Source: Schmidtea nova
Lineage: Eukaryota
Assembly: GCA_044892505.1 (NCBI GenBank)
Contig: CM097882.1
Location: 368,652,001-368,716,000 of the forward strand
DNA length: 64,000 bases
Reading direction: 5' to 3'
The notes under the pieces were generated by a model, which searched no databases, had not been told where the DNA came from, and saw nothing but the letters and a program-made list of their open reading frames with translations. Position numbers and translations under genes: made by a program. This document shows, one piece after another, positions 15,508-50,349 of the stretch; the first letter of the stretch is position 1; the number at the start of each line of letters is the position of its first letter.

Positions 15508-15719
15508 TGTTGGGTTGTATGGGTGTTGTTATAAAATATACAACCCAGAGCCCATAATAAATATTACACTCCAACACTCGTGTGCCAATAGCTTTTCCCT
15601 AACTGACTAGGGTGGTACTATACACGGTGGCGAGAATCTAGTGAGCAGGTGAGCTTCATTGCCCAAACTACTCACTATATTCTTTCTTTGGGGTTCCTGC
15701 TGCCGATAGAAGGACTTAC
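15508..15719 (+). ncRNA. Conserved structured motif, copy 1 (most diverged), class unknown
   Basis: Shares TTCCCTA, TGGTACT, GCAGGTGAGC, AACTAC and GCTGCCGATAGAAGG.CTTAC with copies at 26961 and 50082. Stems TAGTGAG/CTCACTA and CGTGTG/TACACG. Confidence 0.5.
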
Positions 15720-17861
15720 TCATCTACTTACCTTACGGTCTTATCACATAATTTTATCTTAACCTTCTGTCACTATATTCTATACTAGGATTACGATTAT
15801 ACATTCTCAAAAATACACCAATAAACCATCCTAACCCCCACTTATTTCTTATACAATTATGTGCTTAATTCGTCTTTTAACATCACCCAAAATTTAATTA
15901 TCAATTAAGTTTATTCTCACCACGCCCGCGGAACTCCGAAGAATCCCCAGCAGTGCGGCTATCACCCTGATGGCATTACACCACCAGGACACATCTACTT
16001 ATTTTATGAGCAAAGTTTTATCGAGGATAACTAAATCAAATTAAATTCAAAATTAATATTCAAATTCAAATATTCAATTCAAAATTTACAGAAAACCCTC
16101 CAATTACGCATTATAAAACAATAAAAACATACTTGAGCAAACTCGCAAAGGTTTGCTTCCCTTGGATAATCAAATAAAACGATCATAGGTGGCTGGTGGA
16201 AAACTGACTGTCCTAAAATTTTGGTTTCAGAAAAAGTGTTAAAATTATGAATTTTCAACGCCTTTATATACTGACCCCAACACCAGTCGCTCGGATATTA
16301 CGTGTACGCTCCCATTTTGACTTTGTCGAGGTTGCATGCACGTATTTTCCAAAATGTTTTTCTATTACTACTTTAAAACTCATTTTTTGACATCATTACA
16401 TGTTCATCAAACCACTCTTTTATACGAAAAGTCTAAAATTCACAATTACTATTAATCGCAAATTGCGTGGTAACTCGCACATCAGGTGAATGACCAAGTT
16501 ATCACCAATGAATTTATGTAAATTATTGATTTATTGATTTTACTACATTCACTGTTACAACAATAATGTCAATACTTCGCTAATATTATTTACCTTATTC
16601 GAAAATTTAATTGTATTTAATTTATTTGTAAGAATTTGTTTTATGATTCATTTTATTTATTTTGTTTTCTTTAGTATTATTAACTTATACATGTTTATTT
16701 TTTATTTATTTATCTGTGTTTTAAAAATCTAATGTATTATTCCACCATCCCAACAAAAGTCAGCATTGTCTTTTGAAAATTTTGGTTTAAAAAAATTGTT
16801 AATTTCGCTTTAAAATAATTTAATTTTTCAATTTTGTCCATTCTCAGATTTCCCAAATTTTAGTACAATTTTTGATATTATGACAATAATTTGTTTGATA
16901 ACTAGTTCATTTTATAAATTTAAAATATGTTCATTAAAACTATCAGCTGGACTTATTTTATCTTTTTCATTTTTTAAAAAATATTATATTAATAATATCT
17001 TGACTTATCAAATATTGTCCATACTTTATTGACTATTGAAATAAAAATTCGATGTACATTTACCAATTTTAAATATATTCACGTGATTTTATATACCACA
17101 AAAATGCGAGACAAAATCTACTAAACCAAATGTGGCACCAATTTTTACTTATTCTAAATATTTTCATGCATTTTTATTAGCCACAATAATCTGTATTCAA
17201 AATATCTATGACCCTTTCTTTTTGAAGAAACTCTAAGAGTTAAAAATATTCCATTGAAATTTGTTTATAAAAATTTCCTATTCCTGAGTCTAAAATTTCA
17301 GTTCAAAAGACTGAATTCCTTTTTGCCTGAAGAGATTGAGAGAACTAAAAATCAAATACTAGGAAATCTTATAAATAAAACAGAAAATATTTTCAGTTCG
17401 TTTTGATGGATAAAAAATTTAATGATCTATCAACTCAATTGAAAAAGCTGATTTAGAAAAATTACGTAATGTATTGAAAATTGTGTGTTAAAACTAGGTG
17501 AAAAAAACTACTTGAAATATTAGTAACTGAATTAAAACAAAAATGCCATTCAATTGAATGAAAAACATGTGTACTACTTGTTAAGATAATAATAATGTCC
17601 TGTATGTACGTATTAATGTCAACAACAGATGCCCCTGGGATTATATATTAATATGTGAGTTTAAGTTAGTAACAGTTGCTATGTTAAACAAGTGGCCCTA
17701 TGCCTTCAAAATACCTACTATTAGCGACAAAAGTTTTTACAATGCATGTTTTGAATTTCTTTAGAAAAATTACCTTCCACAATGATTGTATATAGTCTTT
17801 TATTCTTTTCAATAGTGATTTTCATATATATCTGCTTAAATGAAAAAATTATTATAATTAG

Positions 17862-18065
17862 GACAAAACTATTCTTGGAAATATCGTTATGATAATGGTA
17901 ATTTGTATATGGCATGCAATAACTTCCATGTGGTTTCCAGACCCAACTCTCAATGTAACCATTGGGATCAGCAATTTGAAGCCAGTGGAAACGATTGTTG
18001 CTTTATCAATAGCATCAATTTATATGTTAGCGCTTTTGATATTCGGATTAACAATCTACTTTGAT
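17862..18065 (+). CDS. Host pLGIC exon C (M3, very short loop, M4)
   Basis: Acceptor attag at 17857-17861 and donor gtaaga at 18066. Joins exon B to give YLTYL|DKTIL (family YLTYxDK). Encodes two hydrophobic helices. Confidence 0.85.
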
Positions 18066-18470
18066 GTAAGAGATAAATTGTTTATTTTAATAATTAATCG
18101 TAAAATTTGACAATAAATTCAAACTTTAATTGTTATAGTTCAATTTACCTTTATTATCTTTTCGATCAACAGGAACAAAAAAGTTTCGATTTTCGAAAAT
18201 ACACTTAAATATACTTTCATTTTTAAAATTTTTATATCTGCTTCAGGTTTTCTTTATTCACTTAGATTTACAAGCTATTTTTATCGGAACTCCTTGTATT
18301 TTTAAACATTCAGTTTTAAATAAAAACTGAAGTAAGATAATAATTCAAACAAGATAGAAATATATTTACTAAACTCAATTATTTTAACCAAAAATACAAT
18401 AGGACATTAATTAATTTATTTTACATTTAAAGTTATTCTATTTTTAATATTTTTAACCCAAATCTTTATT

Positions 18471-18970
18471 TTCGTCGTGACCAGACCCGCCGGCTCGGAA
18501 TGTTCTGACAACAGAGCGCGAGCTTGACGTACTATTTCAGTAAGGCTCATTTCCTGAATTTTTGCCGAGGCTCTCATCTGTTGGGACACTGGCAATGGCA
18601 AACCTGTAACAAATGCTCTTTTGAGCAAATTATCTGATTCAATTCCAGCCAGTGTAGCCAATTGCTTTAAATCAGCGTGAAAAACGTCCACCGGCTCCCC
18701 GTTCCATGACCGGGTTCGAAATTCATCGTAGGCCTTGAAACCGTCCATTGAAAAGGTGTCCAGTTACGCCCTTTCGATTGTGTTGCAGCATCGCTTGTCT
18801 TTTTCTGCCAAATAATCATAGACCAAAAAAGCTGGTCCCTCTAATAACAATGGTAGCACGAGCGAAACATCTTCTTTTTTTAGATGAGCTGCCACCAATT
18901 TCAATTTTTTGAGCCAAGACGAGAATTCACCTATCCCGTCATAGGGCTTTATCAACTTTATTATTTCCAT
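18471..18970 (-). pseudogene. gag: gag N-terminal part of element B (inverted block)
   Basis: MEIIKLIKPYDGIGEFSSWLKKLKLVA...RAFVTGLP... is clearly homologous to gag of element C (38472-38972). Confidence 0.85.
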
Positions 18971-18971
18971 T

Positions 18972-18983
18972 GCCGCGATAGCT
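18972..18983 (-). promoter_or_regulatory. Non-canonical PBS-position sequence AGCTATCGCGGC (element B)
   Basis: Immediately follows the LTR end ...TTTTACA and immediately precedes the gag ATG. Identical in element C. Confidence 0.65.
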
Positions 18984-19221
18984 TGTAAAATAATCATTAA
19001 GAGGAACGAGATAGTGAGCACACATTTATTTAATTAAAAACATACATAAATATAGCGATCTAAATTACCGCAACGTAATATGTTGTCGACAAGAACTATT
19101 GCACAATAGTCTAGTCGCTTTAAGACTGTTACGTAACAGTATTGCAGTATTTTCTTGCACAGTAAATTATAAATTAATATGTGTATAAATCGTAGGACTA
19201 TTATGTCACGATATTTTCCCG
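18984..19221 (-). repeat. 5' LTR of element B (inverted; first ~4 nt lost at the breakpoint)
   Basis: Reverse-complement match to 22182-22419 with a few substitutions. Confidence 0.9.
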
Positions 19222-19226
19222 ACGAA

Positions 19227-22166
19227 GTCATCACCCAACAATGTTAAAATAGAAAGTACGCTCTGTTACAAGTGTGGGAGACCTGGACATTACAAGAACA
19301 AATGTACTATGCTAGAATGTTGGACATGCGGGAACACAGGGCACTCATCCAGACAATGTCAAAAAAGATCGCAGGGAAACGCCAGAAGAGAAACTGTAGC
19401 GCCAGCGGTTTCTCAATAACGTCGGGAATGGCGCAGGTGATAATAAAGCTTAAGGTGAACGGCAAGTGGTGCATTGGATTGGTCGATTCTGAATGTTTCC
19501 AAACAATAGCGTCAAGCAGGCTTGCGAGAAGTAGAGGCGAAACCAAGGATGTCATCTCTGTAGATGGTCGAAGAGTGCATTGCGAAGGAGAGAGCCAATG
19601 CAGAATATCCGTACGCGGATCTTGCGTTACGGTAAATTGTTTGATCATGAAAAACCTTGTAGCAAGGGTGGACGTTGTTCTGGGACTTGATGCAATTGGA
19701 CTTCTTGGAGGCGTTTGGATCAATAAAGAAGGAGTGCGATTTGGTGGATGTGCAGTTTCATCAATTGAGAATGAAGTGAGAATTGAAGATGATGATTTTT
19801 CAGCGTCATTCGATGGGAACAAATGGACCGTATCCTGGAAGTGAAAGGACAAACCTACCCTGCTGAAAAACCATGTCTCAGAATATGCAATAAAACCAGA
19901 AATTCGACAGGAGTACGAAAAGGAGGTCGAGCGTTGGATCAAAGAAGACTGGCTGATTCCAGCGAATTGCAACGATCATGGTATCGTGCCCTTGTTAGCA
20001 GCAGTGCAAGAAAACAAAGGGAAAGTCTGATCGGTTCTTGACTTCAGAGAGCTCAATAGTTTCGTTGAATGTCACACCGGTGACAGCGATGTATGTGGCG
20101 AAAGTTTGAAGAAATGGCGACAAATGGGAGATCAGGAGGTTATGCTTGATTTAAAGAATGCCTATTTGCAGTTACATGTCAGTGAGTATCTTTGGAAATA
20201 CCAAAAAGTTAGATACAAAGACTAACTGTACTATTTAACAGGATTGGGATTCGGCCTCAACTGTGCTAAAAAAATAATGTCTCAAGTGCTCAGAAAAGTG
20301 CTAAGCCTCCACCCCAGAATCAAAGTTGCGACAGAACACTACATTGATGATATCGCTGTTAATACAAGTAAAGTTCAAGTCAATGAGGTCGTCAATCATT
20401 TAGCTCAATACGGCTTGACTACAAAGCCAGCCGAATCAATTGAAAACGCAAAGGTTTTTGGGCTCAGAATAAAACGTGATCGTCAGGGCCACCTTTCATG
20501 GATCAGGGGAAATGATGTCGGCGCAATCGAAAGTGAAATCACTCGTCGGATGCTGTTCTCTATATGCGGTAAGCTTGTTGGACATTATCCAGTTGCAGGG
20601 TGGCTCAGAGTAGCGTGCAGTTATATTAAAAGAACTGCAAAGGGCACGAAATGGGATGATTTAATTGGAAAAGAATGCGAATCGAAGCTGTCAGAAGTTA
20701 TTACTCGTGTCAAATCAAACGATCCAGTCAAGGGAAAGTGGACAGTAAGTAAAAGTGAGTGTGGGGTTCTGTGGTGTGATGCGAGTAGTCTCGCCTTAGG
20801 GGTTATGCTGGTAATAAATAATGACGTCGTTGAGGTTGCTTCGTGACTCAGAAAAGGTGATGACCACTCTCATATAAATGTTGCGGAACTAGATGCGGTA
20901 CTCAAGGGTATTAACTTGGCAATACAATGGGGAGTTAAGAGAATCTAGTTGATGGTGGATTCAGCAACGGTAGTAAGTTGGTTAAAAACAGTTCTGAATA
21001 ATGAAAGCAGAATACGGGTCCATGGAATTTCTGAAACGCTCGTCAGACGCCACCTGGGGATCGTCAAAGAACTCACCGTCGACGAAAGTATATCTATCTC
21101 TGTATGTTTAGTGAAGTCAGCAGAGAACCGAGCAGATGTCCTCACGCGTGTTCCAGAAAAATGGCTGAAGCCTGGGAATCTTTTCGGATGTGTAAGACTC
21201 TCAATTGAGCAAATAAAGGCCCGCCATCGGAAACACCATTTCAGCTTAGAAAAATCAATCTACTTCATTCAATCGGAAAATCCGGAGACCAACCGAGACT
21301 GTATAAAAGAAGTCTTGAGAAACTGTACAGAATGTAGGTCAATCGACCCATTACCGATTAAATGAGAGCAAGGCACACTGGAAGTCTCGGAAAACTGGAA
21401 GAGATTGGCGGTTGACGTCACGCATCACGAGGGATCCACATTTCTGACCATGGTGGAATGTGGGCCCAGCAGATTTGCAATCTGGAGGAAAATAGATCGT
21501 GAGGACGCCCCAAACATTGTGAGAAATCTGGAGGAAGTATTTCGGGAGAGAGGCCCAGTATTGGAACTACTGATGGATAATGGGGCAAGTTTTCAATCTA
21601 ATTCTTTGAGAGAGCTTTGTTGTAGATGGAATGTTAAACCGACCTATAGATGCGCTTATCGGCCGGCTGGAAATGGGATCGTAGAAAGAAACCACCGAAC
21701 AATAAAGTGTCATGCAGCCAGGAGTCATGCAGATCCCCGAGATATCGTCTTCTGGTACAATTCCGCGCCTAGAGATGGAACTAATCAGGAAACAGCCCCA
21801 TCAGAAGGGTTGTTCAAGTATCACTGGAGATTTTACCGAGGAAAAGAAGATGAACGCTCAGTATCATGTGAATATACACCTGGGCAAAGGGTTGTTGTGA
21901 AGCCACGACAAGCAAAGTGTACTACTCAATGGCCCATTGGAATTGTAACTGGAATTAATTTCGGCACAAACATTGAAGTGGATGGAATACCGCGTCAGAT
22001 TGCAGACATCCGGCCATTAGTGGAAGAAGATATTGCTGACGAAAAATCAGAGACAGACCGAGCAAGTGAGGAGGAGATGAAAGTTACAACGCATGAGGAC
22101 AGGCCGAGACGACCACGGAGGAAGCCGCTTTATCTTGATCAGTATGATTTGGATGCATCATACTAA
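19227..22166 (+). pseudogene. pol: gag C-terminus and pol of element B (multiple stops)
   Basis: CYKCGRPGHYKNKC and CWTCGNTGHSSRQC, GGGAAAC at 19374-19380, LVDSEC protease, YIDDI RT, WCDASS RNase H, integrase AVDVTH / MDNG / GIVER. Confidence 0.9.
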
Positions 22167-22177
22167 TCACGGGGGAA

Positions 22178-22419
22178 TGTGCGAGAAAATATCGTGACAT
22201 AATAGTCCTACGATTTATGCACATATTAATTTATAATTTACTGTGCAAGAAAATACTGCAATACTGTTGCGTAACAGTCTTAAAGCGACTAGACTATTGT
22301 GCAATAGTTCTTGTCGACAACATATTACGTTGCGGTAATTTAGATCGCTATATTTATGTATGTTTTTAATTAAATAAATGTGTGCTCACTATCTTGTTCC
22401 TCTTAGTGATCATTTTACA
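22178..22419 (+). repeat. 3' LTR of element B (242 bp)
   Basis: TGTG...TACA, preceded by PPT GGGGGAA at 22171-22177. Confidence 0.9.
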
Positions 22420-22429
22420 GAATTTAAGT

Positions 22430-23030
22430 TGAAAAACCAAACACAGTAAGATTTATTCGAAAGTATTTACAACAACTAGTTGACACAACTTTCGATAATA
22501 ATAAATCTCTTTATAAAAATTCAACAACTGTTATTAAACTTCTATTTCGATTTAGCGCAGGGATAAATCTCCCAAAGGAAGATCTCCCTTTCTTGATACG
22601 CTAATAAGAATGAATTTGATTCTAACTCCTACCTATTTTCGACTTCTGGTCTTGCAAATATTTACTCACTTTTTTCTTCGACCACTATGGTAAACTTTGG
22701 AATTTGCCTCTCATTTTTATACTGTCTAGTTTGATGAGTTTTTCTTATCCTATCAGACTGTTCGACGGGTGCCTCTCAAGTTGAAACTTTCTAATGTAAT
22801 TCAATAATAATAAAATTGCTAACCACTTTTCCGTAAATTGGGCTTTTCGGGTTTCCTTTACAATCAATTTACTGGGATAATTACCTATCTCGCTAGTCAT
22901 CCGCACTTCCTACGCTACTCGGGTTCACCATTAGATCGGGTTCTTCATTAGCTTGGCTTTCCCATTAGCCAATTAACTCTTAATTAATTCATTTCTTAAG
23001 GGTCAAATGTGATATAATGAAGCAGTTATT
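22430..23030 (-). repeat. Truncated, diverged LTR of the ~0.8-kb family 'L'
   Basis: Shares ggaagatctccctttc, cgggtttcc and ttcccattag blocks with 33590-34030. Confidence 0.5.
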
Positions 23031-23155
23031 ATGTAAAAAATGCCAAATACTACGTAACCTTTGGTATATTGTACCAGACGGGGACGCATTCTAATACTTA
23101 TCATTATTTTCAATATTATCATTATATTTAACATAATCAATATTCAAATCATATA

Positions 23156-24423: not shown

Positions 24424-24479
24424 TACATTCAATGTTTTTAATCAACACAATATTTGCTGAGGGTATTTTATAACTTTAA

Positions 24480-25110: not shown

Positions 25111-25456
25111 CCTGACTATGGTAAAAACTGAGTCATGTGGATTGTACATGGTGCCTCACCCACCATACATTTCTGACCTTGCCTTATGAATTTTCACTTC
25201 CGAAAACTGAAGAAGAATTTACGAGAAAGTCTTTAATTGTGCCTATGATTTGCAGCAGCATGTCACGAATTTGCAGATTTCATACCCCAAAACCTTCTAA
25301 GAAAATGGATTTTTGAATTTAGTGTCACAATGGAAAAATTCGTGGAAGTTGATGGAGCTTACATTAAGAAATAAACTTTTACATATTGCTTGTTTGTTGC
25401 TAAACATTTGAATAAAATTGGTCGATCTAGTCTGAGTATTTATTTGGCACACCACG
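25105..25456 (+). mobile_element. 3' fragment of a mariner
   Basis: PHPPYISDLA-like codons and a terminal ...GGCACACCACG resembling the TIR at 24423. Confidence 0.6.
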
Positions 25457-26960: not shown

Positions 26961-27219
26961 TGCTGGGTTTATGGGTGGGCTTTTAAACGATTAATAATAA
27001 ATAATTAAATAAATAAGAATAAATAAGAATATTAGGGATGCCTCACTCATAACCATACATAAAAACAAATCGTCTCACTCGCGTGCCCCTAACTATTCCC
27101 TATCTAGCTAGGTTGGAACTGCGCGCGGTATTTGAAAATGATGGGCAGGTGATCTTCATCGCTGGAACTACTTCCCATTTATTTTCACGGGTTCTCGCTG
27201 CCGCTAGAATGTCTTACGC
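26961..27219 (+). ncRNA. Conserved structured motif, copy 2
   Basis: Stems CGCGTGC/GCGCGCG (27080-27086 / 27121-27127) and CCTAACTA/TAGCTAGG with loop TTCCCTATC. Confidence 0.55.
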
Positions 27220-28564
27220 GGTTTTTCTCTCAATGTTAACGCTCTACTTCCTTAAAAAATAACAAAACATCTTTTAAATAGAGATTTGATTTAACTACAA
27301 ACTCCTTAAATTATATAAAACGCAAAGAAAATGCGCTGCATCTTAAAATACATTTATTTATAAAAACTCTCGGAAATCTCCTTTACTAAGTATAACTACT
27401 CAAAATCACTGCTATGTCATTGCATCGTTAGGCGCAAAGATTTCTTGATCGAGTTCGTTTTGAGAAAATTTAAATTAACTCGCTATATGAGCTGTAAAAT
27501 TCGTGTAAACTTCAAAATTATCTCGAAAAATGCGCAAACCTCAAAACCTATCGTTATGTAAAACTCAGAATCATTGCTAAAAAATCTTGCAACACTCACA
27601 AATCCTATCACTCTATGCAATACTCAAACCTATAACTATTAAAAAGATGTTACCAGACATTATCCACCATGTGTAACGATCAAAAATTGTTTAATGAAAT
27701 TATTCATTATGTGCAACCATGAAAATAACCGAAAATCCCAATTAAATAAAAAGTTCTAACCGTCGTGTGAAGCTACGGGGCTCCACGACTACGACTGACT
27801 CGCTTGCCGTGTTAGCAGTCGAGGAAGTATATCTATATCTATAAATAACATTTTAAAATACTAAATAATAAACATCATATAATATCAATTTTCGGAAAAA
27901 TTAGCCTCAAAGTTTTATTGTGACCACTGAACAACAATTTACCCAACACATCTCACTAAAATAACACAAAAATACCCGTTCAAAATTGATCCACACGACT
28001 GGCGAAATCAAAATCGAAATTTTGCTCTCCGTAAATTAATGCCGAGGTAAGTTTTGATTTTGATTTTTCAACATCTATTTATACTTATTTTACTGACGCT
28101 TACATATTTTGTTATTTACATAATTTAATAACGATTTAAACTTACTTATTAGTTTTATTAAGTGAGCATTTATTTATCTTTCATAAATTTAACTTTATAA
28201 TTTGATTTATTTATTTTCGAAAATATTTGTTTTTAATTCTATTAAATTAGGTGTGTATCTATTGTTTTATTGTGCATTTATTGATTAAAACAATTTAATT
28301 TTAAATCTATTTTCATTCCTATCTCTGTTAATTTTGCGATATTTCAATGGGGATTTATTCTATAATTTTTAATAAATTATTTTCTTTATTCTGATACCGA
28401 TTTTATTCTTTGATCATGCTTTTCATAATAACTTTACAAGCACTGATCTTCCCCATTCAATTCTCGTGCGGTCCTTCGTATGTAAATCTGACCTGCACTC
28501 AAATTGTGTGCTCTCCTTTGAGATGCCTCTTTTTTATCGCTTCGACCCTATCACGATCGACTTA

Positions 28565-29856
28565 CGTGGTGCGGTCAAAAAGTTTCCGGCCTACCCTACT
28601 TAACAAATTAATTTTTAATAGAAATAGGTTTATTTTATTGGAAATTTATTGACAATTTCATGTTGAAAATCTTATTGACCTAATCCATTTACTTTATCGG
28701 TTGCAGATGGAAATGTCGTTGCAAGTGCATTCACTGGGAAAAATTGAGTATCCCAGTGCTATTCGCTTTTGTGTTCTTCTCGGCCAAACCAACCAGGAAA
28801 TCATGGCAAATCTGAATCGAGCCTATGGCGAAAAGTGTCCCTCTCAGTCTATATCAAGTTTTGGATTGCTGAATTCAAACGGAGTTGGCAAAGTGAGTCA
28901 GATGAGGAACGAGAGGGGTGATCAACGACTTCGATAAATGAAGATGTGAAGTAAAAATTGGAGAAAAGGGTACTGGAAGATCGCCGTATAATTACCAGGC
29001 AGCTTGAAGAATCCCTACAAATATCAGACGGCACCGTAGTGCAATTATTGAAAGACCTTAACTTCAACAAAGTGGTGTCTCGCTTTGTACCTCGCTTTTT
29101 GACAACTGAGATGTGCAATAATCGAAAGAATGCGTGTCTAATGAACCTCGCCATTTACCGCAAGTATGGAAAAAGATTTATCCAAAACATCCTCACTGTT
29201 GATGAGACACCGTTGCCCCTACATCAGCCTGAATCAAAGCGCGAGTCTATGGAATTGAGAAAGCCGGAAGAACTAAAAGTTTGGAAGTCTCGTTTCGGAA
29301 TGTCGCACATACGGGAACTCATGTTGATTGTGTTTTGGAGTCATAAGGGAGTGATCCTTACCGACTTTCTTGAGAAGGACGGACAATCAGCGGAGAATAT
29401 TACGGTAATCTCGTTGAGCAAGCTCGTTGAAAGTGCCGAAAACCATATGGTCTCCCTCACTGGTTTGAACATGACAATGAGCCAGTTCACACCAGCCGCA
29501 TTGCCCAAGCAAAGCTCAATGACTGTGGCTTCGAAATCATTAGCCACCCTCCATACAGCCCTGATTTGGCTCCCTCAGATTACTGCCTATTTACGGTATT
29601 GAAGAAGCAACTGTGGGGACAGTATTTCATGGATGCATGCGATTTAGAGGAGGCTGTAAATCGGATTTTTGTCCAGCTTCCACCCTCATTTTACCATGGG
29701 GCATTCAAAGCCCTCCCTTGTCGTTGGCAGAAGTGTCTCGATGCCGGATGTAATTGGTTCGAGAAGTAATGGTATTGGTGTTGATAAAAATATAGTTGTG
29801 ATTTCTTGCTTTTACTTTTTTCTGGGGTAGGCCGGAAACCTTTTGACCGTACCACG
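28565..29856 (+). mobile_element. Mariner (DD34D) transposon, 1292 bp, frameshifted
   Basis: TIRs CGTGGTGCGGTCAAAAAGTTTCCGGCC / inverse, TA TSD on both sides. Motifs ILTVDET, LIVFWS and HPPYSPDLAPSDY. Confidence 0.94.
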
Positions 29857-30290
29857 TATAAGATGCGGTTCGTATGACTACTATTGTACTTAACTGTTTT
29901 TATTTTCCCTTGCGTTCTTTTACTGCTTAACGTCTTGTCTCGCTTTTCTCTTTGTATGTATTTAATTTTTAATAAATTTTTATTAAATTTATTTTTGATT
30001 TCACCAGCCCAACAGAAGTAAAATCCTTGCAAGCTTCATATTTATGGTTTAAGAAATGAGGACCTCGTTTTTTACGAACAATGTCAAGGTATAAATTTAT
30101 GGAAATCATTAAATTAATACGTTTCCACAAAATAATGAACGAAGTGAACGTCTGAAAACAGACAAATTTGCATTGATTTAAAGTATATAGAATACCATAA
30201 TTATCATTTTTTACCTTTGATCTTATTTTATTATTATAATCAATAATTCCCATAATGATGACTATAGATCAAAACTTTTTTTATAAAAAA

Positions 30291-30323: not shown

Positions 30324-30336
30324 GTATTTCTGAAAT

Positions 30337-34282: not shown

Positions 34283-34299
34283 AAAGCTTAAACTCATTT

Positions 34300-35392: not shown

Positions 35393-35479
35393 TGTTGTTT
35401 CTATAAAGACAAGAAAATCACGCTTTATTTTAAAAATCTATTATACTCAAATTTCTGCGTATTCAAACAAACCTTTACA
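35393..35479 (-). repeat. 3' LTR of element C (87 bp)
   Basis: TGTA...AACA on the - strand, with AATAAA inside. Confidence 0.9.
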
Positions 35480-38334
35480 TCTCCCCGTGATTTTCGTCTT
35501 CGTTCACGTTAAAACTTGTTTCAAAATCATCAAGGTATCGAGGTCTTCTGGTCCTGACTCTAAGTTCATCTAGGCGCAAGTAGTCTAATGTTGGATTATC
35601 AACGCTTGTTAGTCCTTCATCGTTGTTGTTATCCACTGACACTTCGTTGACAGCAGGTCGTATATCAAAATAGTGGCGCGGTATCCCGTTGATTTCGAAG
35701 TTGGTCGATGAATTTACCTTGGTTACACTCCCCTCACCCATGTTGAGGTGCATTTCGCATTTGGTGGTTTAACGTAAACTGCATCGCCAACTTGGAACGA
35801 AGTATACTGTGTCTTCCCTTCTGTATTACGTGCGCCATCTCCTTTCTACCAATATGAAAACACGGGAGAGGATGGAGGCGTTTTGAATTTTTCATTAGGT
35901 GCTAGGTTGTACCAGTATACCATGTCCAATACTCCCTTGTTGGTTCTGGCTGACATACGTTTAATAGTATGATGGTTCCGTTCTATTATACCGTTCCCGG
36001 AAGGCCTATAAGCACATCGAAACACACATTTTACACCCCATTTGTAGCACAGTGCTTTCATTTGTGTTGACCGAAATGAAGACGCATTGTCGATCACCAG
36101 TTCATCAGTTGAACCTCGTTCTCTGAAGATCTGTTCAAGGTTCCGTGTAATGGTCTCCGCATCTTCACTTCTTATTTCCCTCCACAGAGCGAAACGACTC
36201 GGTCCACAATCAATCACAGTCAAATAAAGCTTACTTAAATAGTGTGTAACATCCATAGCCAGTCTCTTCCATGTCTCCTTAACGCTCAACTCTCCATGCT
36301 CCCATTTAACAGGCGCTGGATCGATAGATTGACACTCTACACATTTACCTATTATTATCTTAACATTCTCAAGCGTAACGTCCGGACAAAGTTGCTTTGC
36401 AAAATACAACGTCTTCTTGGCTCCAAAATGATGCTGTCTGTGACTTTCTCGTACCACTTCGCTCATAACAGCAACGGTGCTTACAGTTGGTTCATCACAC
36501 GATTTAACCCAAGTCAGCTATTTGTTACTGACTCTTGTGAGTACATCTGCTTTGTTTTTATCTGTCGGAACAAACTCAACCGAGATCGTTAAGTCATAAC
36601 TCTTTCGTAATTCACAGATAATCTGCAGACGTCTTCGTACTAGCATTTCAGCAATTCCATGAGTTCGGATTCTAGCAGTATCCGTTAAAACTGAATCTAT
36701 CCAACTCCTAACGGTATCGGAATCTGTTATTACAACTAAGTTGCTTCTTTCCCAGCTGATGGCTAAGTTAATTCCCTTTATCACTGCATCCAGCTCTGCA
36801 AGGTTTATATGAGCAAAATCGTTTTTCTTCCTCATCCATGATGCATCTTCGACGATTTTACCTGATATTTCAAACACCACTCCTAATGCCAGATTACTTG
36901 CATCGCACCAGAGTATTGTAGATCCTTCTTTGTTTACGTGCCCCTCACCAGACACCGGATCACTTTCTTTCACACGATACATCATTTCGTCGACCATTCT
37001 TAGCGCGATCTTTCCAATCGAGTCATCCCACTTACTCCCAGCACTGTGTCGTTTTATATAGCTACTCGATACTCTCAACCATCCAGCAACTGGATAGTGC
37101 CCAAAGAGTTGACCGCAGAGTGAAAATAACTCCCTTCTTGACATGTCTGTAAACTCGCTGTCTGGCAAAATGTATCCACGGTGCCACGTACGACCGTTAA
37201 TACTCGTTTGAAGCTGGAGACCTAGCACTCTTGCATTATAAAACTCTTTCGGTGACTTTGTAATTAGCCCGTATGTTGCCAAATGGCTTATTACTTCATT
37301 GACGTTTATTCTCGACTGGTCGACAATAATGTCGTCAATATAACTGTCTGTTGCTTTCCTGATGTCTTCTCTTAAACGTAATACCTTTCGTACTATTGTT
37401 GACATTATTTTTGGAGCCACATTTAAACCAAAACCGAGTCTCGTTAGAAAGTATCCGTTCCCTTTGAAACTAACCCTTTGATGCTCCCATAGCTCTTTTT
37501 CCACATGGATCTGAAGATAAGCATTTTTAAGATCAATTAATATAACCTGTTCGCCCATCATTCGCCATCACCTTAATGATTCGCCACATACGTCACTTTG
37601 TTCATTATGACTACTAACATATTTATTTAGTTCCCGAAAATTCATTACCGGGCGAACTTTTCCTTTGTTTATTTGCTCTACTGCTAATAACGGGATTTTT
37701 CCATACGCGACGTCTTTCGTTGGAATTAGCCATCCTTCTTGAATCCACCGTTCAACCTCCGTATCAAACTTGATCTGTAGCCCTGGATCGATTTTGTAAT
37801 TTGAAATTCTATTCAATAGTACAACTGGTTCTGCTTTCCATTTCCACTTCACGGTCCACTTGCTATCAATGAATACTGCTGAAAAATCACCATCTTCAAT
37901 TCGCACATTTTCATTTGACTGATCCAACATCTCAGCCACGCACGATACATCTGCAATACCTGGAAAAGATACACCAGTCTTGTCAATTTAAGACCACCAA
38001 GCATCCCTATTACGTCCATTCCTAAAATCATGTCAACATTTAGTGGTAGATTCAACAACGAGACACAATCAACACTCAATAATTTACCACCAACAATCAG
38101 TTGAACTTTCACATCACGCATACACTTGACTAGTGATCCATCCGCAGTCATGATACTCCCATTCCGCATAAATCGATTCTTCGCAATTCTGGCTGACACG
38201 ACTGATTTGGAACATCCCGAGTCGATCAATGCTTTCACGGACTCCCCATTGGTCATGACAGAAATAAACTAAAGCGCCATTATATTCGTGCTGGAGTAGA
38301 CGCTGGCGCAAGCGTTACTCCTTTTCGGTTTCCC
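35475..38334 (-). pseudogene. pol: pol of element C with premature stops
   Basis: ALIDSGC, LIDLKNAY, YIDDI, WCDASN, HINLAEL, LAMDVTH, IDNASS and GIIER. GGGAAAC slippery site at 38328-38334. Confidence 0.9.
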
Positions 38335-38972
38335 GACTCTGAATTTTTGGTACACTCCTTTGCAATGTGGCCCTTTTCTTCACACCGCCTACACTTCTTT
38401 CCTTGTTTCTTAAAGCAACGTCCTTGTATATGGCCATTCTTTCCGCAATACAAACATTTCTTATACTTGTCTTATTTTCCCACAACAGCCGAACATAGTT
38501 CCATAGTGTCGCAGTTTACTAAAACTCGGGACTGTTTCAAAACATCAACAAGAGACATCTGCTGAATTTTGGCATTGGATCGTAACTGTTGTGACGTTGC
38601 TGTTGGCAAACCCATAATGAATGCGCTTTTTATTAAAATCTCATTGTTTATCTTGGCCAATGATGCTAAGTTTTTGAGATCATTCAAATATACATCGACT
38701 GGCTCATTGCACCACTTTCGTTCACGGAATTGGTCATATGCTTGGAACATATCTATGGAATAGACATCGATTAGAGCATGTTCGATCTTCAATGCGTTGC
38801 CCTTGTCTTCCGCACTCAAATACTGATATACAGCGAAAGCTGGCCCATCTAGGTATAATGGAATAAATGATTCTAAACCTGCGATTTTCTGAATTTTTAC
38901 CACTAGCTTCACTTTTTGAATCCACTGTTGAACATCGCCTTCTCCTCTGAAAATTGGGATCATCTTGTCCAT
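38275..38972 (-). pseudogene. gag: gag of element C (stop at 38472 before the two CCHC knuckles)
   Basis: ORF 38472-38972 continues after the TAA into CLYCGKNGH...C and CRRCEEKGHIAKEC. Confidence 0.85.
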
Positions 38973-38976
38973 TATT

Positions 38977-38988
38977 GCCGCGATAGCT
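38977..38988 (-). promoter_or_regulatory. Non-canonical PBS-position sequence AGCTATCGCGGC (element C)
   Basis: Directly after the 5' LTR end. Identical to element B although the two LTRs are unrelated in length and sequence. Confidence 0.65.
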
Positions 38989-39075
38989 TGTTGTTTCTAT
39001 AAAGACAAGAAAATCACGCTTTATTTTAAAAATCTATTATACTCAAATTTCTGCGTATTCAAACAAATTTTTACA
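38989..39075 (-). repeat. 5' LTR of element C (87 bp)
   Basis: Direct repeat of 35393-35479. Confidence 0.9.
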
Positions 39076-39830: not shown

Positions 39831-39883
39831 TTATCCTGTATTTGAAATGATCGAGACTAATTAAAATTACATTATATGTACAA

Positions 39884-43500: not shown

Positions 43501-43846
43501 TTATTATAGACTATTGTAAAGTGTATTTGCTATACATTTTCAATGATTTAAGAAATATGTTTCTTTAGTTTTTTCAAAGTCTTTTCAATAATGTTTAGAT
43601 TTAAAGACTAAAGTATTTATTGAAGAAACTTTGGAACTAGTCGGTATTACTTTGACAACATGTAAAATTATATTTTGTTAGTAAGTTCCATCATCATATT
43701 TAATTATAGACTGCCACTATTTTTAAAAGTTGTTAACGTACTCGTCGATTATAACAATGATCTTCAGAAATATTAAGCGACTTTGCCTTGGACATCTAAG
43801 GGTAGAACAGACATGTTATTGTTCAATTTCATTAAGCTAAACACTA

Positions 43847-44430
43847 CGTGGTGCGTTCAATAAGTACCCGACCAAAGGTAAAAAATGTAATGAAAAATTT
43901 TAGTTTTTTTGTGTAAATAAATAAATAAATATAGGTTTTGATTTCAGTTATTGTTTAATTTTATCAAACGGATTAAAATTTTTATTGTGACATTTTGAAT
44001 TGTCGTCGGTGTAATGATTTCAGACGTTGAGTATCGCAGCGTTATCAAGTTCTTTGTGTTGCAGAAGAAGACGTGCAGTGAAATCTAAGATCTTTTGCAG
44101 TCAACTTACCTACATGACTCCCCATCTCTGACAACTGTTAAATATTGGGTCAGAGAGTTTAAAGGTGGTCGCACCTCCGTTTTTGATCAAGAAAAATCAG
44201 GTCGGCCACAAGAAATTTTTGACACAATTGAGGAAAAATTGGAGAAGATTGTCCAAGAAGAGCGTCGAATCACCATGAAAATGCTGTCAACGAAGCTCAA
44301 CATCAGTGTTGGTACAGCCCACGCCAAATTGAAATACATGGGTATCAGAAAACTGTGCTCCAGATTCGTACCCCGCTTCTTGACTAGTGAAATGATGCGA
44401 AACCGCTTGGAGTCAGCATTTGTGTTAATA
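43847..44430 (+). mobile_element. 5' half of a mariner
   Basis: TA + CGTGGTGCGTTC TIR. VEYRSVIKFF, WVREFKGGRTSV...SGRP and SRFVPRFLT. Confidence 0.85.
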
Positions 44431-44434
44431 TATA

Positions 44435-45659
44435 TATCAGATCAGTCCATAAGCTTGTGCAAATTTGTTGGTAAATCTTTAACTAATATAAAAAAACACA
44501 ATTTAACATTTTAATTAATTATATATTTTTCTCCCTTAACTACAATGAATCAACATCTTATAGGTAGCTTTTTTATTCCATTGCTGTGGAAAGACTTTTG
44601 TTTTGATGCAAAAAACTTGAAAGTTCATTGTCTACATCCTGTTTAGAATTTAATCTTTGTTCCAGTAAAAAATTTGTAAGGCACGAAATAAGTGAAAGTC
44701 ACTTAGAGCAATATCTGGGAGTAAGCAGTATGTGGCAAAAACTCCAAATTAAATTCACTTATCTTATGCAGCGTTGTTCAAGCCGTATGCGGTCTAGCGT
44801 TATCATGATGAAACAACACTTTCTTGATATTCATCAATCGCGGGCTTTTTTTTAATCAATTCTGAGTTTAGACGGGAAAGTTGTCCTTTATAAACTTCTG
44901 AAATAATCGCTTGATTTGGTTCTAACAGTTCATAATAAACTACACCATACATATCCCACCAAACACTCAAAAGTATCTTTTTAAGGTGAAAAAACACTTT
45001 TGGTGTTGGAATCGACTATTTATCTCTATCTGTCTACGTTCTTTTTCTTGTAACGTTATGATGAATGATCCATTTTTCATAACCTATTACCAAACGATCT
45101 AAAAATGGCTCTCTTTCGTAGCGCGAGAAACGGGAAGCGCAGATGTTTCCTCGCTGTTGGCAATTGGCCTCGGATAGTTTCCAAATCTTCTTTAAATGAC
45201 AAAAGACTGTTCCATGAGATGAATTCATCATTTCTGCCATCTGATCCACTGTTCATTGTAGCTGTGACATCACAAAATTTCGAAGAATGTTATCATCAAA
45301 ATTAACAGGACGTCCTGGACGGGATTCATCATAAATGCTGCTTTTTCAAACTTTAAATTTTTTAAACAATGACAGTATGTTAACCATGTACACTATTAAC
45401 TTTTATCGCTGCAGACCTGGCAGATTCAACACACGAAAATAAAACATGTAGCGCAGCACGTTTGTATTGATTATCTATATTCATTTTCTATGGTACTAAA
45501 ATGTGTTCAATATTTACGAAAGTGGGTGACGAACTGAATACTATGTAATCAAACGATGGCAAGTTTCGACAGGTTCAAACTTGTATTGGTTTAGTGACTG
45601 AGTCATAGTGAATTCCATGCATGCTATTAATGCGCACGAACTTATGGAATGATCTGATA
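44435..45659 (-). mobile_element. Second mariner subfamily copy abutting or inserted into the previous one
   Basis: TIRs TATCAGATCAGTCCATAAG / CTTATGGAATGATCTGATA. ILLSVWWDMYGVVYYELL and FLDRLVIGYEKWI. Confidence 0.8.
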
Positions 45660-45959
45660 TATATAGTATAGAATTTGTATACGATATTCCGTCAATTGAC
45701 AGTTTTGCGAACCAACTTAAAATTTACTTCAAATATACTTTAAAAAAGTAAAATATGGTAATTTGGTAATTTGACACTACGCATTTTAAAGTTAATTTTT
45801 TAAAATATTAAATTCCATTATTTTCTACAGACAGAGAATAATCATATTTCTTATTATGCAGGACTTTAAAATTAGGATTGGTTAGGTTTGTTGTTCCAAA
45901 GATGCAAAAAGTATAAATATCTGATGCATTTGTTAAAGCAATTTTTAACTTTTTCTTTA

Positions 45960-46770
45960 TTTTGTTTAGATTGTGTCCAAACAAACACAAAATAAAACAA
46001 AAACACAAAACTTATATGAAAATTAATAAAAATATAAAATTTTAATTAAATATTTGGAAAATTTAACGAGGGGAACTCGTATGGGAGGATGAGAACGAAT
46101 TCAAATATAGTAATATAAAATCAAAAAAGAGTCCCCAGAAAGAAAAAATTGTAAAATTAATAAATTAATTAAAAGTTAATTAGCAAATGGGAAACCCGAG
46201 CAGTGTTAGAAATCCGGGTGCTTAACAAAATAATCTAATTATCCCAGGGGAAATTAATCATGAGGAAAACCTGTGATTAAAAAGATAACCCGAAAGATTG
46301 CCAGATTATCAATTGTCAAATTAATAATAAAGAAAACCGCAGAAATAACATAAATTGTCAAACTATAATAGGAATCCCCCAGATAACTAAATCAGATATG
46401 ATGATTCAATTAAAACTAATCGTATAAAAAGAAGAGTCAAATTTCAAAATGCGCTAGAGTATTTGAAGAAAAATAAACTTAAGTGAGTAATAGTTAGACA
46501 AGTGTCAGTTGGATCAAATTTCTTCTACATTGCGTATCAGAAATGGAAATCTTCCTTTGTTAGACTAATCCCTACGCTTTAATAAGAAAAGTAGTGAAGA
46601 CAAGTTGAAATTATGTAAAGAATTTGTAATTAAAATTTGTATTGAATAAGTATTGTAAAGTTGTCATATAGTCGAATAAAATTTGCTGTGTTATGTTTCT
46701 TGAATCAATCATATAAGAACATCAATGAGTCAGACAGCAACACCGACTAATTGCTATATACCCAAAAATT
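45960..46770 (+). repeat. Diverged LTR, family 'L'
   Basis: Shares diagnostic blocks with 31721-32575. Termini degraded. Confidence 0.6.
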
Positions 46771-47479
46771 TTATAACATGAAAACAAATTTGTAAAGGTT
46801 ATGTTTCAATTAGCTGGATTTCATTAAGAGTCACTAGAGGATTTCTGAAAAGATTTAATAATTTTATTATTGTTTTTTAAGATTCTTAAAAGATCTTAAA
46901 GATAATTCATAGAACTTGAAGACACGTTGAAGGTGATAATTTGACTATTAAATTTTATTATTTTGATAAAATAGTTTTAATTTACGAGACCTTATCATGC
47001 TTTCACGCTAAGGCCCGTAATATAGATGACTAAACCCGTTAAAAAAATAAAAATAATTTTTTAAATTTTTGAGTGATTGTTGCTAAATTTTTCAAACAAT
47101 TCTTTATCTAATTTAATAAATGATTGATGCTAAAAGAATAACATAAAAAGAGCAAAAAACAGAGTTAATGGCCAAATTTGTAAAGTACAGAAATTATAAA
47201 ACTCAATAATTAATTGCAAATTGTGCCAAAAGTAGAGTAAATGATGTAGGGTAAAGTTAATAATTTGTGGTGAAGCCAAATCAATCTTGCAAATAGGCAG
47301 CTGCCCATTTATTTACTTCTATTAACTTTACAAAGGAGGAAAGGGCAAATTTTAAACAATTATTACGAATTGGTAGTTTTCTTCTTATAGAAATTTTTAA
47401 CGTTTTATTAATTTTTTTTGTTTAGAATTATTTTCCATATTTCTTTTTGTATGAATAATACGATTTTATATATTTAACA

Positions 47480-48061
47480 CAGTGTTGTCCAAACTTTTTT
47501 GAGCCACGGCACACTTGGCTGAATTAAAAATTTTCGCGGCACACCTAAATTTTTTTTTGCTTTATTTGCAATTTTTTATTGCACGTTTACTAATCTTTTA
47601 ATAAGAAATGAAAAACTTATTTACTTGAAATAAATTTAATGTAAAATATTTTAAATTTAGAAAAATTAGTGTATGAAAAATTCATAAAACATAGTTAATG
47701 AGATTTATGTGCTTGATGTTCCGAACAAATAAGTTCCAATCGTGGTGGAATTTTTGACAAACAAACTCTTAATTCTTCATCAATGTTAACCATACGTTCC
47801 CGCTTCTTTGATTTAATTGTGGTTAGAGTTGAAAATAAACATAATTAAGCTGCTTACGTATTTTAGATAGTCAATATTTCTAGTAAGAAATATAAATATG
47901 ATTGTAAATTTCGCACTTAATTGACTGATTATCATTTAAATTTGAAATAACTGATAAAATATCCAAAATTCAATTTCCTTTTATTAAGTTGTTTGAAAAA
48001 CAGGGTTTTTTTGACTTTTTTTTAAAAAAAACTTCACGGCACACCTGGGCACCCGCCACGG
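47480..48061 (-). mobile_element. hAT (Charlie-like) 3' end fragment
   Basis: Terminus CAGTGTTGTCCAAACT. The - strand encodes FSTLTTIKSKKRERMVNIDEELRVCLSKIPPRL...QAHKSH*, the C-terminus of Charlie/ZBED8-type transposases. Confidence 0.8.
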
Positions 48062-48070
48062 CTTAAATAT

Positions 48071-48113
48071 AATCATACAAATAATGTTAAATTTTAACAT
48101 TATTTGTATGATT
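48071..48113. repeat. Perfect 21-bp inverted repeat with a 1-nt spacer
   Basis: AATCATACAAATAATGTTAAA-T-TTTAACATTATTTGTATGATT. Confidence 0.95.
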
Positions 48114-48348
48114 TCCCATTCATTGTTATTAAAGAATAAAAATAATTTTTAATCTTTTTATAATCTTAATTTTATAATCTTTAATTTTTAAGATATTTAG
48201 TTATTTGATTTAATTGATTTAAATTAAATATTTGGAAAAATATTTATTTTATTTCTATACAAAATAAAATAGTTTTTTATTGAAAATACGTATTTTTACT
48301 TTTCATTGCAATTCTGTTTCATTTATTTTAATTGCTTTTGTATTCTAG

Positions 48349-48447
48349 GCTGGTAAACGGAGAAGACAAATGAAGCAAAAAGATAAAGATTTTGAAATAA
48401 AAATTAAACAAATTTTGGATGAAAATATTGAATGTGAAATATGCTGA
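48349..48447 (+). CDS. Host pLGIC terminal exon D
   Basis: Polypyrimidine acceptor ...ttttgtattctag. Encodes AGKRRRQMKQKDKDFEIKIKQILDENIECEIC*. Joins exon C in phase 0 as YFD|AGKRRRQMKQKD, matching the post-M4 D...RRR.M..KD tail recalled for this family. Confidence 0.7.
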   Translation, partial: AGKRRRQMKQKDKDFEIKIKQILDENIECEIC

Positions 48448-48795
48448 TATTTTTTAGACTGGTGAACTTGATTTTTTTTTACCGATTAATATTTTTTTCA
48501 CAACCGCCATAATTTTGATATTTGCCAAAATTAGAATTGTTTTCTATATTACATTTTTGATTAGATAATATAAATTTTGATAATTTTAATTGTCTTGCAT
48601 TTGATAAAGATTTGCGAAAATATATTCAATACCACAAGTACTATTAATTAATACATCTTTTGCAATTTGAATTTAAAATGAATTCATTATATTTATACAA
48701 TAATTGCAATAAATATGTTTTAATAACCAAACATAAGAAAATCCAATAACTTTTATTATTTTTGGATTATAGATCAAAAATAATTTTTTTATTAG

Positions 48796-48836
48796 GTATA
48801 CGATATTTCGGCGCAGCCTTTATCAAGTGTGTATAC
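48796..48836 (-). ncRNA. Hammerhead variant (U3-A8 core) with a degenerate inverted partner at about 48860-48900
   Basis: Minus strand: GTATAC-ACAC-TTGATAA-AGGCTGCGCC-GAAA-TA-TC-GTATAC. Cleavage triplet AUC. Confidence 0.6.
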
Positions 48837-49427
48837 ACAGATGTTAATTAAGTGTGTAAATACACACCTAATAAAGGATGTGCTGATATATCGTACTTTT
48901 TGATGGAGTCTTACAAAATGAATATGAAAATTATTGAATTATAAGCTAGATCAAATGTAAAACCAAAAGACAATGATGACAAAAATATATCATACCTTTT
49001 TGTTTATTTGAAAACATATCATCAAATTGGATTATTTAAAATAAATGACACTTATATTTTTATCGACACAAAAATAAATTATTGAGAATACTTGATAAAT
49101 TTGTTTGTTTTATATATTTTAGCTCATTAAAATTAAAGTGCAAAAATCTGCTAACGAAAATATTTGCTTGTTCCAAATCTTTATTAGTATTAATTAGAAA
49201 AGATAATTATGGCTTTTAATTTAGATACTGAATGTGGGATTAAGATTTAATAAACATTTAAAATGACTTAAAATTATAATAATTTAATAATATTCAATTT
49301 AATAATTCATTTATATTTTTAGATTATAAATCAAAATTCATATTCCAATTAAAAAGTTTCATCTCTATTGTCTAAAGTAAAAGTAGAATAAGCTCAGGAC
49401 AAAACACTAAATTTTTCACATATAAAC

Positions 49428-49714
49428 TGTTGCTATCGTAAACACACACATACACACAGTATTAGGATGTGTCCCCGTCATATATAGGTCAAATCCCTAT
49501 ACTACTCCCCTAGTAAAAAAAAATTTTATGCAAGTCTAATTTTATGTAGGTCAATTTAAGAATACTTAAAGTTCAAAGTTTTGGTTTTATGACACTAAGG
49601 ACACTTTTGGGTGAGTTTAAGGTCAAATTTTTGGTTTTAGGACACTTTAAGATCAAAAACGTAGGTCAACGTCGAATTAAGGACACTTTAGGGTCATTTT
49701 TAAGGTGAATTTAA
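49428..49714 (-). repeat. Probable LTR end fragment with degenerate TAAGGACACTTT repeats
   Basis: TGTTG terminus. 49430-49480 is an inverted match to about 10387-10430. Repeated aggacactt units at 49595-49700. Confidence 0.35.
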
Positions 49715-50007
49715 TGTTGGATATGTCATAAGTGACTTAAAAATAAAGTGAAAATTAAAAAAAAATTAAATAAAAATTAATAAAATCACAAAAATCTATA
49801 AATTAATAAATACAAAAACATTAATTAAAAAATTAAGAAAATTGAAAATCAACATAGGGCAAGGTAAATTGGTATGGGTGTATGCCGATTGATGAGACAA
49901 ATTCAAATATATAAAAATAAAGTCGATGGGGGTCCCCAGAAAGAAATAATTTTAAAAATTATAATATTAATTAAGAATAGAAGGAGGCTATGCCAGGTCT
50001 GGATCCC
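49715..50007 (+). repeat. 5' part of a family 'L' LTR, cut by insertion of the giant element
   Basis: TGTTGG start, then the ggtatggg / gagacaa / ccccagaaa blocks. Homology stops at about 50007. Confidence 0.5.
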
Positions 50008-50081
50008 TGTGAGTTATCGCGCGTTTTTTGGTGCTGTTTTTAAAATGTGTTTTGTTTAAATGTTTAGATTTTTTATTATTA

Positions 50082-50349
50082 TGCTGGGATTATGGGAGGG
50101 TTTCAAGTAATTCAAATAAATTATTAATCATTAATTGAACGACTATTGATGAGTACGTATACTAGGGATTCCACGCCCATAACCATACATAACATGACTA
50201 CTACACGCGTATGCCCTTGACTATTCCCTACTAGTCAAGTTGGTACTGCATACGGTGGTGGAAAAATGATGGGCAGGTGAGCTTTGTTGCCAAAACTACT
50301 CCCCATTTATCTTCCCTCGGGTCCTTGCTGCCGATAGAAGGTCTTACGC
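50082..50349 (+). ncRNA. Conserved structured motif, copy 3
   Basis: Perfect stems CGTATGC/GCATACG (50208-50214 / 50248-50254) and CTTGACTA/TAGTCAAG (50216-50223 / 50232-50239). Loop TTCCCTAC. Confidence 0.55.

Follow-up and report, generated by a model that had tools for sequence, protein, structure and literature searches.

The locus and its host element

The DNA analysed here, referred to below as the window, is a stretch of 64,000 nucleotides (nt) from Schmidtea nova (GenBank assembly GCA_044892505.1, contig CM097882.1, positions 368,652,001 to 368,716,000 of the forward strand). It harbours three copies of a structured motif of 240-290 nt, each located at the end of a long terminal repeat (LTR), and the third of these LTRs belongs to a Burro-like giant Gypsy element of ~28.4 kb. 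On comparison of the genomic copies, the motif is a real, strongly covarying and apparently undescribed RNA family. It forms the U5 end of the LTR, 6 nt away from a primer-binding site (PBS) for tRNA-Pro, and is a candidate for a structure that acts when reverse transcription is primed. A sequence-only reading of the window had proposed a conserved, undescribed structured motif near the U5 end of the LTR of a giant element, with copies at 15508, 26961 and 50082; that proposal is supported, and a covariance model bears out the three positions with scores of 121-151 bits (all three copies being in its training set), the sole other match in the window scoring 12.9 bits. The copies and their host sequences are as follows.

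15508..15732, minus strand: motif copy 1, at the end of an old, partly deleted LTR reaching ~16755
26961..27230, minus strand: motif copy 2, at the end of a solo LTR (26961-30014)
50082..50349, minus strand: motif copy 3, the last ~270 nt (U5 end) of the downstream LTR of the giant element
50082..53327, minus strand: LTR of copy 3, 3,246 bp, TG...CA, 4-bp target duplication ATTA, with two minus-strand open reading frames (ORFs) inside
50624..51217, minus strand: LTR ORF of 198 aa with an arginine run and homologues in other motif-bearing families
51527-52045, minus strand: second LTR ORF
53328..63999, minus strand: internal part of the copy-3 element, continuing past the window end
55366-56772, minus strand: MATH/TRAF ORF, with further unnamed ORFs in the same internal part
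57322-63999, minus strand: ORF for reverse transcriptase (RT), RNase H, integrase and ankyrin repeats

Every copy begins at the TG that is the first base of the LTR, whilst the upstream flanks differ from locus to locus. Copy 1 has lost the TAGGG segment that its family retains. The solo LTR of copy 2 is bounded by the target duplication GAAG and is interrupted by a mariner-like insertion (~28565-29858). The partner LTR of copy 3 lies outside the window (L032:1263), 25.2 kb distant and 99.94% identical, and because an 18-19-nt PBS matching the 3' end of a tRNA-Pro gene adjoins this partner, the motif can be assigned to the U5 end. The plus strand of the window thus corresponds to the 5' end of minus-strand strong-stop DNA, and the minus strand to the sense RNA.

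The host is, by its coding sequence, a Burro-like giant Gypsy element with the layout described for Burro/GYPSM1 (PMC6431247). Pfam matches in the minus-strand internal ORFs comprise a CCHC knuckle, a viral fusion glycoprotein, protease, RT, RNase H, integrase, ankyrin and MATH/TRAF; the Gag, fusion-protein and protease frames lie outside the window (L031), and the polyprotein region is broken across several frames. The CCHC knuckle is in Gag, the fusion glycoprotein lies between Gag and Pol, the order is protease, RT, RNase H, integrase, and the 3.25-kb LTRs, 25.2 kb apart, agree with the size of >25 kb and the long LTRs of Burro elements; an element of another motif-bearing family (family 4) measures 29.5 kb. 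A Pfam search returned no BIR or BCL2-like domain in the element frames scanned (including a set of eight), and no Pfam match in either LTR ORF.

Two side observations concern the LTR of copy 3. A TATA-like word at ~52930 together with AATAAA at ~50490-50525 would give an R region of ~2.4 kb. In two contig runs whose kind is not recorded, and which are blind to strand and to RNA ends, reads over 50142-50383 are several times as deep as over most other LTR bins; no RNA run was listed among the sequencing runs that contain the sequence, an outcome that is neutral as to expression.

Architecture and covariation of the motif

The motif is predicted to fold into four hairpins, designated P1, P2/3, P4/5 and P6, with the following positions in copy 3.

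50082..50193, minus strand: P1, terminal hairpin with a variable AT-rich loop that contains TAGGGA (50163-50168)
50204..50257, minus strand: P2/P3, two stacked covarying helices
50258..50317, minus strand: P4/P5, a long covarying hairpin
50318..50324, minus strand: junction heptamer between P4 and P6, a candidate primer activation signal (PAS), with one G-U pair to the tRNA in the copy-3 family
50327..50349, minus strand: P6, a covarying 3-bp stem with a conserved 7-nt loop (GATAGAA on the plus strand, 50333-50339)

In P2/P3 the internal loop is asymmetric and conserved (50214-50216 opposite 50239-50248) and the apical loop reads TTCCCTA (50224-50230), whilst the internal loop of P4/P5 is near-invariant (GTGAGC, 50277-50282, opposite ACTA, 50295-50298). 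As the search patterns contained some of the invariant words, the conservation of these words is overstated in the rows so retrieved. The CCCT-containing loop and TGG(T/A)ACT junction described from the sequence are present, and the enclosing pairing of TATGGG/CCCATA type was rightly recognised and corresponds to P1.

Covariation was assessed in an alignment derived from 181 anchor-bearing loci, 167 of which passed the filters and 99 of which were non-redundant (mean identity 56%); removal of 10 incomplete rows left 89 copies for the pair tests. The two stems for which compensatory changes had been claimed are indeed present, with covariation far above controls. Over the 23 pairs of P2, P3, P4 and P6, 83.9% of cells are paired compared with 67.9% after shuffling, double changes occur in 21 of the 23 among the 89 diverged copies, and the covariation score is 0.522 against 0.242 for shuffled columns and at most 0.148 for slid partners. 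The four pairs ranked highest by average-product-corrected mutual information (MI) are all helix pairs. Since column shuffles are blind to relatedness, a test on path-disjoint leaf pairs was added: 44 such pairs yielded 34 compensatory changes over 22 helix pairs, against a null mean of 3.9 and maximum of 12 (2,000 permutations), so that covariation held up in this larger alignment. The same test counted 222 single changes, as expected for decayed copies. P1 and P5 were assessed by eye, from single folds and from MI. Folded alone and whole, copy 3 is not significant (z of -0.64 on the plus strand and -1.78 on the minus strand).

Two further pairings of the sequence-only reading fared less well. 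GCAGG could form Watson-Crick pairs with CCTGC/CTTGC in just 10 of 89 copies (18 including G-U), and the region instead forms P6. The TAGGG/CCCTA pseudoknot is possible in many families, both words being exact in 36 of 99 copies, yet it lacks clear compensatory change, and both words are altered in the largest family (family 7), so the pseudoknot is not universal. Two other candidate features were discarded: a TCGG/CCGA pairing that appears in single-sequence folds is superseded by the covarying P6 stem, and a sense 3' splice site at the P2/3 junction is not conserved, family 4 having no AG there.

The motif resembles no family catalogued so far as searched. In line with the earlier expectation, no described Rfam family matches: none reached the gathering score in the window, and the best E-values (0.92-1.3) were to unrelated families. 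Outside this genome, a pattern search retrieved 76 metagenome stretches and one viral stretch, all of which scored 21.1 bits or less with the model, the best being partial matches to the search pattern itself. The literature, judged by titles and abstract openings and with the original Burro description outside its coverage, yielded no description of the motif.

Abundance and families

Three exact patterns matched the genome 1,574 (control 31), 1,274 (control 0) and 9,012 (control 0) times, and the first two sets may overlap. The 9,012 matches represent family 7, the largest. This family is distant (integrase ~56% and MATH 36% identical) and lay outside the training of the model, which nevertheless scores 36-39 bits in 4/4 of its loci. 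Motif carriers include coding elements of 28-30 kb and also elements of 12.6-14 kb with partial gag. When the copy-3 LTR was compared with 11/11 family-2 and 11/11 family-1 loci, which extend ~1.5 kb into the LTR, it was alignable over the motif only.

Several arrangements of the carriers may be recorded here. Non-autonomous elements of 12.6-14 kb (L214/L215 and L220/L221) retain the full motif and have LTRs that are 99.6-100% identical. LTR ends of different motif-bearing families lie 0.4-1 kb apart at L091, L111 and L105, which suggests nested insertion; a miniature element at L091 and L111 is rejected, as these are adjacent LTRs from different families. Family-7 LTR pairs 14-34 kb apart, both with a PBS (L256/L257, L258/L259 and L254/L255), represent tandem or rearranged elements, and one such arrangement includes a large inverted duplication (L260).

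The primer-binding site and the basal helix

Neither the PBS nor the predicted helix spanning the LTR boundary nor the complementarity with the T-arm of the tRNA had been recognised in the sequence-only reading. The PBS matches the 3' end of the genome's tRNA-Pro gene over 18-19 nt. It is present at 23 of the 181 loci, all of tRNA-Pro type, and no other primer tRNA was recognised among the 181. The genome contains 628 PBS-LTR junctions; among the 100 listed, the spacer between PBS and LTR measures 6 nt in 97 and 10 nt in 3. Position and strand of the motif upstream of the PBS are observed, from which we infer its presence in genomic RNA.

At the PBS-side LTR, the base of P1 is predicted to cross the LTR boundary into the spacer, the partner in copy-3 coordinates being CATAAC (50188-50193). 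A CATAAA-type word, complementary to the spacer plus the LTR start, follows P1 in 73 of 99 copies, and in sense folds with the PBS held free at least three spacer bases are paired with U5 in 35 of 38 distinct junctions; a stem that includes the bases next to the PBS is thus predicted in most junctions. The 10-nt spacer of family 7, whose terminus is fixed by varying flanks, is accompanied by a longer helix that still ends 3 nt from the PBS. Locus L238 has a PBS and no motif behind the terminus. Since the spacer lies outside the LTR, the basal helix can form solely at the PBS-side LTR, and it requires that this LTR be single-stranded, as sense RNA or as strong-stop DNA.

Further observations relate to the ends of the element DNA. 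Integrases usually trim 2 nt, and a spacer of 6 or 10 nt (L032:1257-1262; L225-L227) implies trimming of more than 2 nt at the U5 end. The 6-8 bases beyond the PBS (L242-L255) vary strongly among 98%-identical copies, and some extend the tRNA sequence, which points to copying that runs on beyond its usual end point in the tRNA. The tRNA-Pro gene occurs in a tandem array with a 308-bp period (L208-L213; G000:C1:459.6 Mb), and the tRNA 3' pattern has 1,106 matches in the genome. The site expected for the polypurine tract is not purine-rich (window 53328-53360; L216 ~3193-3230; L220; L215; L256 ~3981-4020; L258 ~4370-4410) and contains a short perfect hairpin alongside a palindrome-like word rich in G/C, kept in 5/5 families checked, including family 7; given such a site, plus-strand priming may be unusual.

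The junction heptamer and the tRNA T-arm

The heptamer between P4 and P6 reads CGGGTTC on the plus strand and is identical there to the T-arm of tRNA-Pro; its sense strand is accordingly complementary to the T-arm, over the 5' strand plus loop. Its retention was scored in 110 loci found without the heptamer in the pattern, 15 of which had no recognisable motif. In the remaining 95, the heptamer can pair at all seven positions in 79 (43 perfectly and 36 with one G-U, the latter being two variants found at 31 and 5 loci), and 16 differ otherwise. Family 7 combines one of the known G-U variants with two extra pairs. In 60 of 99 copies the T-arm is the site of the longest match to nt 1-57 of the tRNA, and 13 of 15 sense folds give the heptamer a mean unpaired probability of 0.4 or more.

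Other contacts and functions for this region were considered. CACCUG would pair only weakly with the anticodon loop (-6.3 kcal/mol), an RNA polymerase III B-box is contradicted by the inconstant bases following GGTTC, and no conserved tRNA complement was seen by eye in the 110 nt 3' of the PBS at seven loci.

Which strand folds

The sequence-only reading had placed the fold antisense to the giant element, on the grounds of about five G-U pairs on the plus strand against one on the minus strand. That bias disappears in a larger sample: in 15 PBS-bearing copies the count is strand-neutral (32 G-T against 28 A-C), and in the core of well-aligned pairs G-T and A-C are both low and at similar levels. 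A copy-2 G-U cited in its favour is a rare variant, found in 2 of 23 family-2 matches, whereas 14 of the 23 have A-C in that P2 stem, a wobble in the sense RNA. This common family-2 variant favours the sense strand, as does a predicted pair of the invariant bases 50282/50295. In folding, the sense strand performs better: measured against shuffled sequences it surpasses the plus strand in 69 of 89 copies, with a mean z of -1.71 (plus strand -0.72), it also folds better in 12 of the 15 PBS-bearing copies, and consensus folding gives -27.8 for sense against -23.7 for the plus strand.

A predicted role in priming reverse transcription

With moderate confidence, the U5 motif is predicted to be a platform in the sense RNA that docks tRNA-Pro and gates the start of reverse transcription. 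In this model, the 3' 18-19 nt of tRNA-Pro would anneal to the PBS, 2-4 nt off the foot of P1, whilst P1 would close over the first template bases to be copied. Closure of P1, P2/3 and P4/5 would draw the heptamer, ~240 nt off in sequence, near the PBS, where it could pair with the freed T-arm strand and act as the PAS. Contacts for the polymerase or Gag, or tertiary contacts, might be provided by the invariant internal loops together with the loop of P6, and the copies at downstream LTRs and in solo LTRs would simply have been carried along when the LTR was duplicated. In support of a priming role, the motif starts exactly at the LTR terminus, and the rest of the LTR is unalignable between families at the loci compared. 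The predicted basal helix into the spacer, the complementarity of the heptamer to the T-arm and the better folding of the sense strand point the same way.

A number of observations weigh against this interpretation. Priming leaves the invariance of the loops of P2/3, P4/5 and P6 unexplained, which leaves room for a role in export or packaging, a role in strong-stop DNA, or catalysis. The heptamer duplex (-9.7 to -14.6 kcal/mol) does not surpass the best plus-strand 11-mer (-13.6 to -17.4 kcal/mol), one young subfamily (L237) retains five heptamer pairs only, and the match to the D-arm (TAGGG) is missing from family 7. All PBS-bearing families use tRNA-Pro, so that the primer offers no variation with which the heptamer could covary. 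The wobble evidence is undecided on strand, and two positions favour the plus strand, namely 50276-50299, which is G-C or G-T on that strand (G-T in 35 of 89 copies), and 50268-50307, where G-T occurs in two clusters. The PAS model is itself disputed in human immunodeficiency virus (HIV) (PMC3185550).

Alternative explanations

Rev and Rex response elements are multi-hairpin structures in the LTR that are bound by an arginine-rich protein encoded by the element. The strongest alternative, unlikely as it stands and compatible with a priming role, is that proteins bind the motif in the full-length sense RNA, in the service of export, packaging or read-through of the poly(A) site of the upstream LTR, and that the binder is perhaps the arginine-rich LTR protein, in the manner of such response elements. 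The likeness extends to size, multi-hairpin form, LTR location and an arginine-rich element protein, here by virtue of the arginine run in the LTR ORF, with binding putative; the invariant internal loops fit as well. The Burro motif differs from these elements in having no sequence or Rfam similarity to them and in lying in U5 beside the PBS. A sense AATAAA lies 125-220 nt before P6 in 9 of the 15 copies listed, and the motif would there be carried by read-through RNA only; however, its position is inconstant and 6 of the 15 have none at that distance, and protein binding leaves both the spacer helix and the T-arm match unexplained.

An improbable second alternative is that the fold acts in minus-strand strong-stop DNA, on the plus strand, for example by blocking self-priming or by presenting a long U5 end to integrase. 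Nearly all pairs of the core helices are Watson-Crick and could form on both strands alike, DNA folding reaches -20 to -34 kcal/mol, the spacer helix could form in strong-stop DNA also, and two pairs are G-T on the plus strand. Nevertheless, the plus strand folds worse, in 12 of 15 copies as RNA and in 14 of 15 as DNA, and the T-arm match exists on the sense strand only.

Of comparably low probability is a tertiary RNA machine of a new class, either a tRNA-sensing switch or a ribozyme, built into U5. Here docking of tRNA-Pro would elicit a response of the invariant loops, by which P1 would be opened for the polymerase or the RNA processed. If so, primer capture would be coupled to the fate of a 25-30-kb genomic RNA, by a machine retained since the Burro families split.

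The putative new ribozyme of the sequence-only reading, self-cleaving or otherwise catalytic on one strand, received no positive support and is very unlikely. Catalytic RNAs, too, can combine freely covarying stems with unpaired bases that do not vary, here those of two internal loops and one hairpin loop, but there is no Rfam match at the gathering score nor a credible one by E-value, the GCAGG pseudoknot is not conserved and TAGGG/CCCTA shows no covariation. By the established retroviral mechanism, a cut in sense U5 would part R from the PBS and prevent strand transfer.

Action in antisense RNA or at the DNA level via CAGGTGAG, which we take to read as a plus-strand 5' splice site and to contain an E-box, is the least probable explanation: the word occurs in 89-94 of 99 copies (partly fixed by the search pattern) and 50276-50299 is G-C or G-T on the plus strand, but the largest family has CAGTGAGC, whereby the E-box and the AG-GT junction are lost and the internal loop is kept, upstream sequence showed no conserved promoter for an antisense transcript, and wobble counts are even between the strands.

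Relation to known priming structures

A U5 inverted-repeat stem at the PBS is a feature of retroviruses. The Burro U5 fold would be an apparently undescribed, larger version of known priming structures. Structures that control priming are known in a few retroviruses and in yeast Ty elements, and they are short there: PAS and U5 structures at the PBS are reported for HIV-1, HIV-2 and Rous sarcoma virus and predicted for human T-cell leukaemia virus type 1 (HTLV-1) (PMC3185550, PMC11251516), a PAS/anti-PAS contact is described in HIV with a similar contact in Rous sarcoma virus (PMC3185550), and the RNAs of Ty1 and Ty3 contact the T and D arms of the primer (PMC4974528, PMC5371799).

The Burro motif shares with the retroviral PAS a 7-8-nt U5 segment complementary to the 5' side of the T-arm and a stem directly upstream of the PBS, and with HTLV-1 the use of tRNA-Pro as primer. 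In contrast to the retroviral arrangement, the Burro segment is ~240 nt from the PBS (10 nt predicted for HTLV-1), is embedded in a fold of 240-290 nt with four hairpins and invariant loops, which persists across families with integrases of just ~56% identity, and is accompanied by a spacer of 6 or 10 nt that is paired with U5. As in Ty1 and Ty3, where 5' RNA structure is of importance to reverse transcription, the RNA of an LTR retrotransposon is complementary to primer arms outside the PBS. However, the segments of Ty1 lie 3' of the PBS in GAG and those of Ty3 at the opposite end of the genome, whereas the Burro segment lies upstream, in U5, and the Burro PBS is a full 18-19 nt.

With Burro/GYPSM1 of planarians the host element shares a size of ~28-34 kb, multi-kilobase LTRs, a Gag zinc knuckle, a fusion-protein domain between Gag and protease, and RT, RNase H, integrase, ankyrin and MATH/TRAF domains, the BIR and BCL2 domains of that element being without match in the frames scanned here; the part of its description available mentions no LTR RNA structure, PBS spacer or primer contact (PMC6431247).

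An animal Gypsy clade thus offers thousands of natural variants of a far larger U5 fold, with clear covariation, and both the new RNA family and the primer-docking model are approachable with a 300-nt fragment and tRNA-Pro. The motif is also a sensitive marker with which to find and orient Burro LTRs that have become unalignable elsewhere. Judging from the spacer of 6-10 nt and from a plus-strand priming region that is not purine-rich, Burro DNA seems to be made in an unusual way at both ends.

Other elements in the window

The remainder of the window contains further repeats. An ordinary Gypsy element at 2625-9221 has LTRs of ~0.9 kb and broken pol frames, and gives no match to the motif model. 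Related decayed elements at 18984-22419 and 35393-39075 retain pieces of protease, RT, DUF7047 and integrase, the former flanked by 238-nt inverted repeats and the latter by 87-nt direct repeats. At 10700-12002, inverted arrays of a 29-nt AT-rich tandem repeat resemble the ends of foldback elements.

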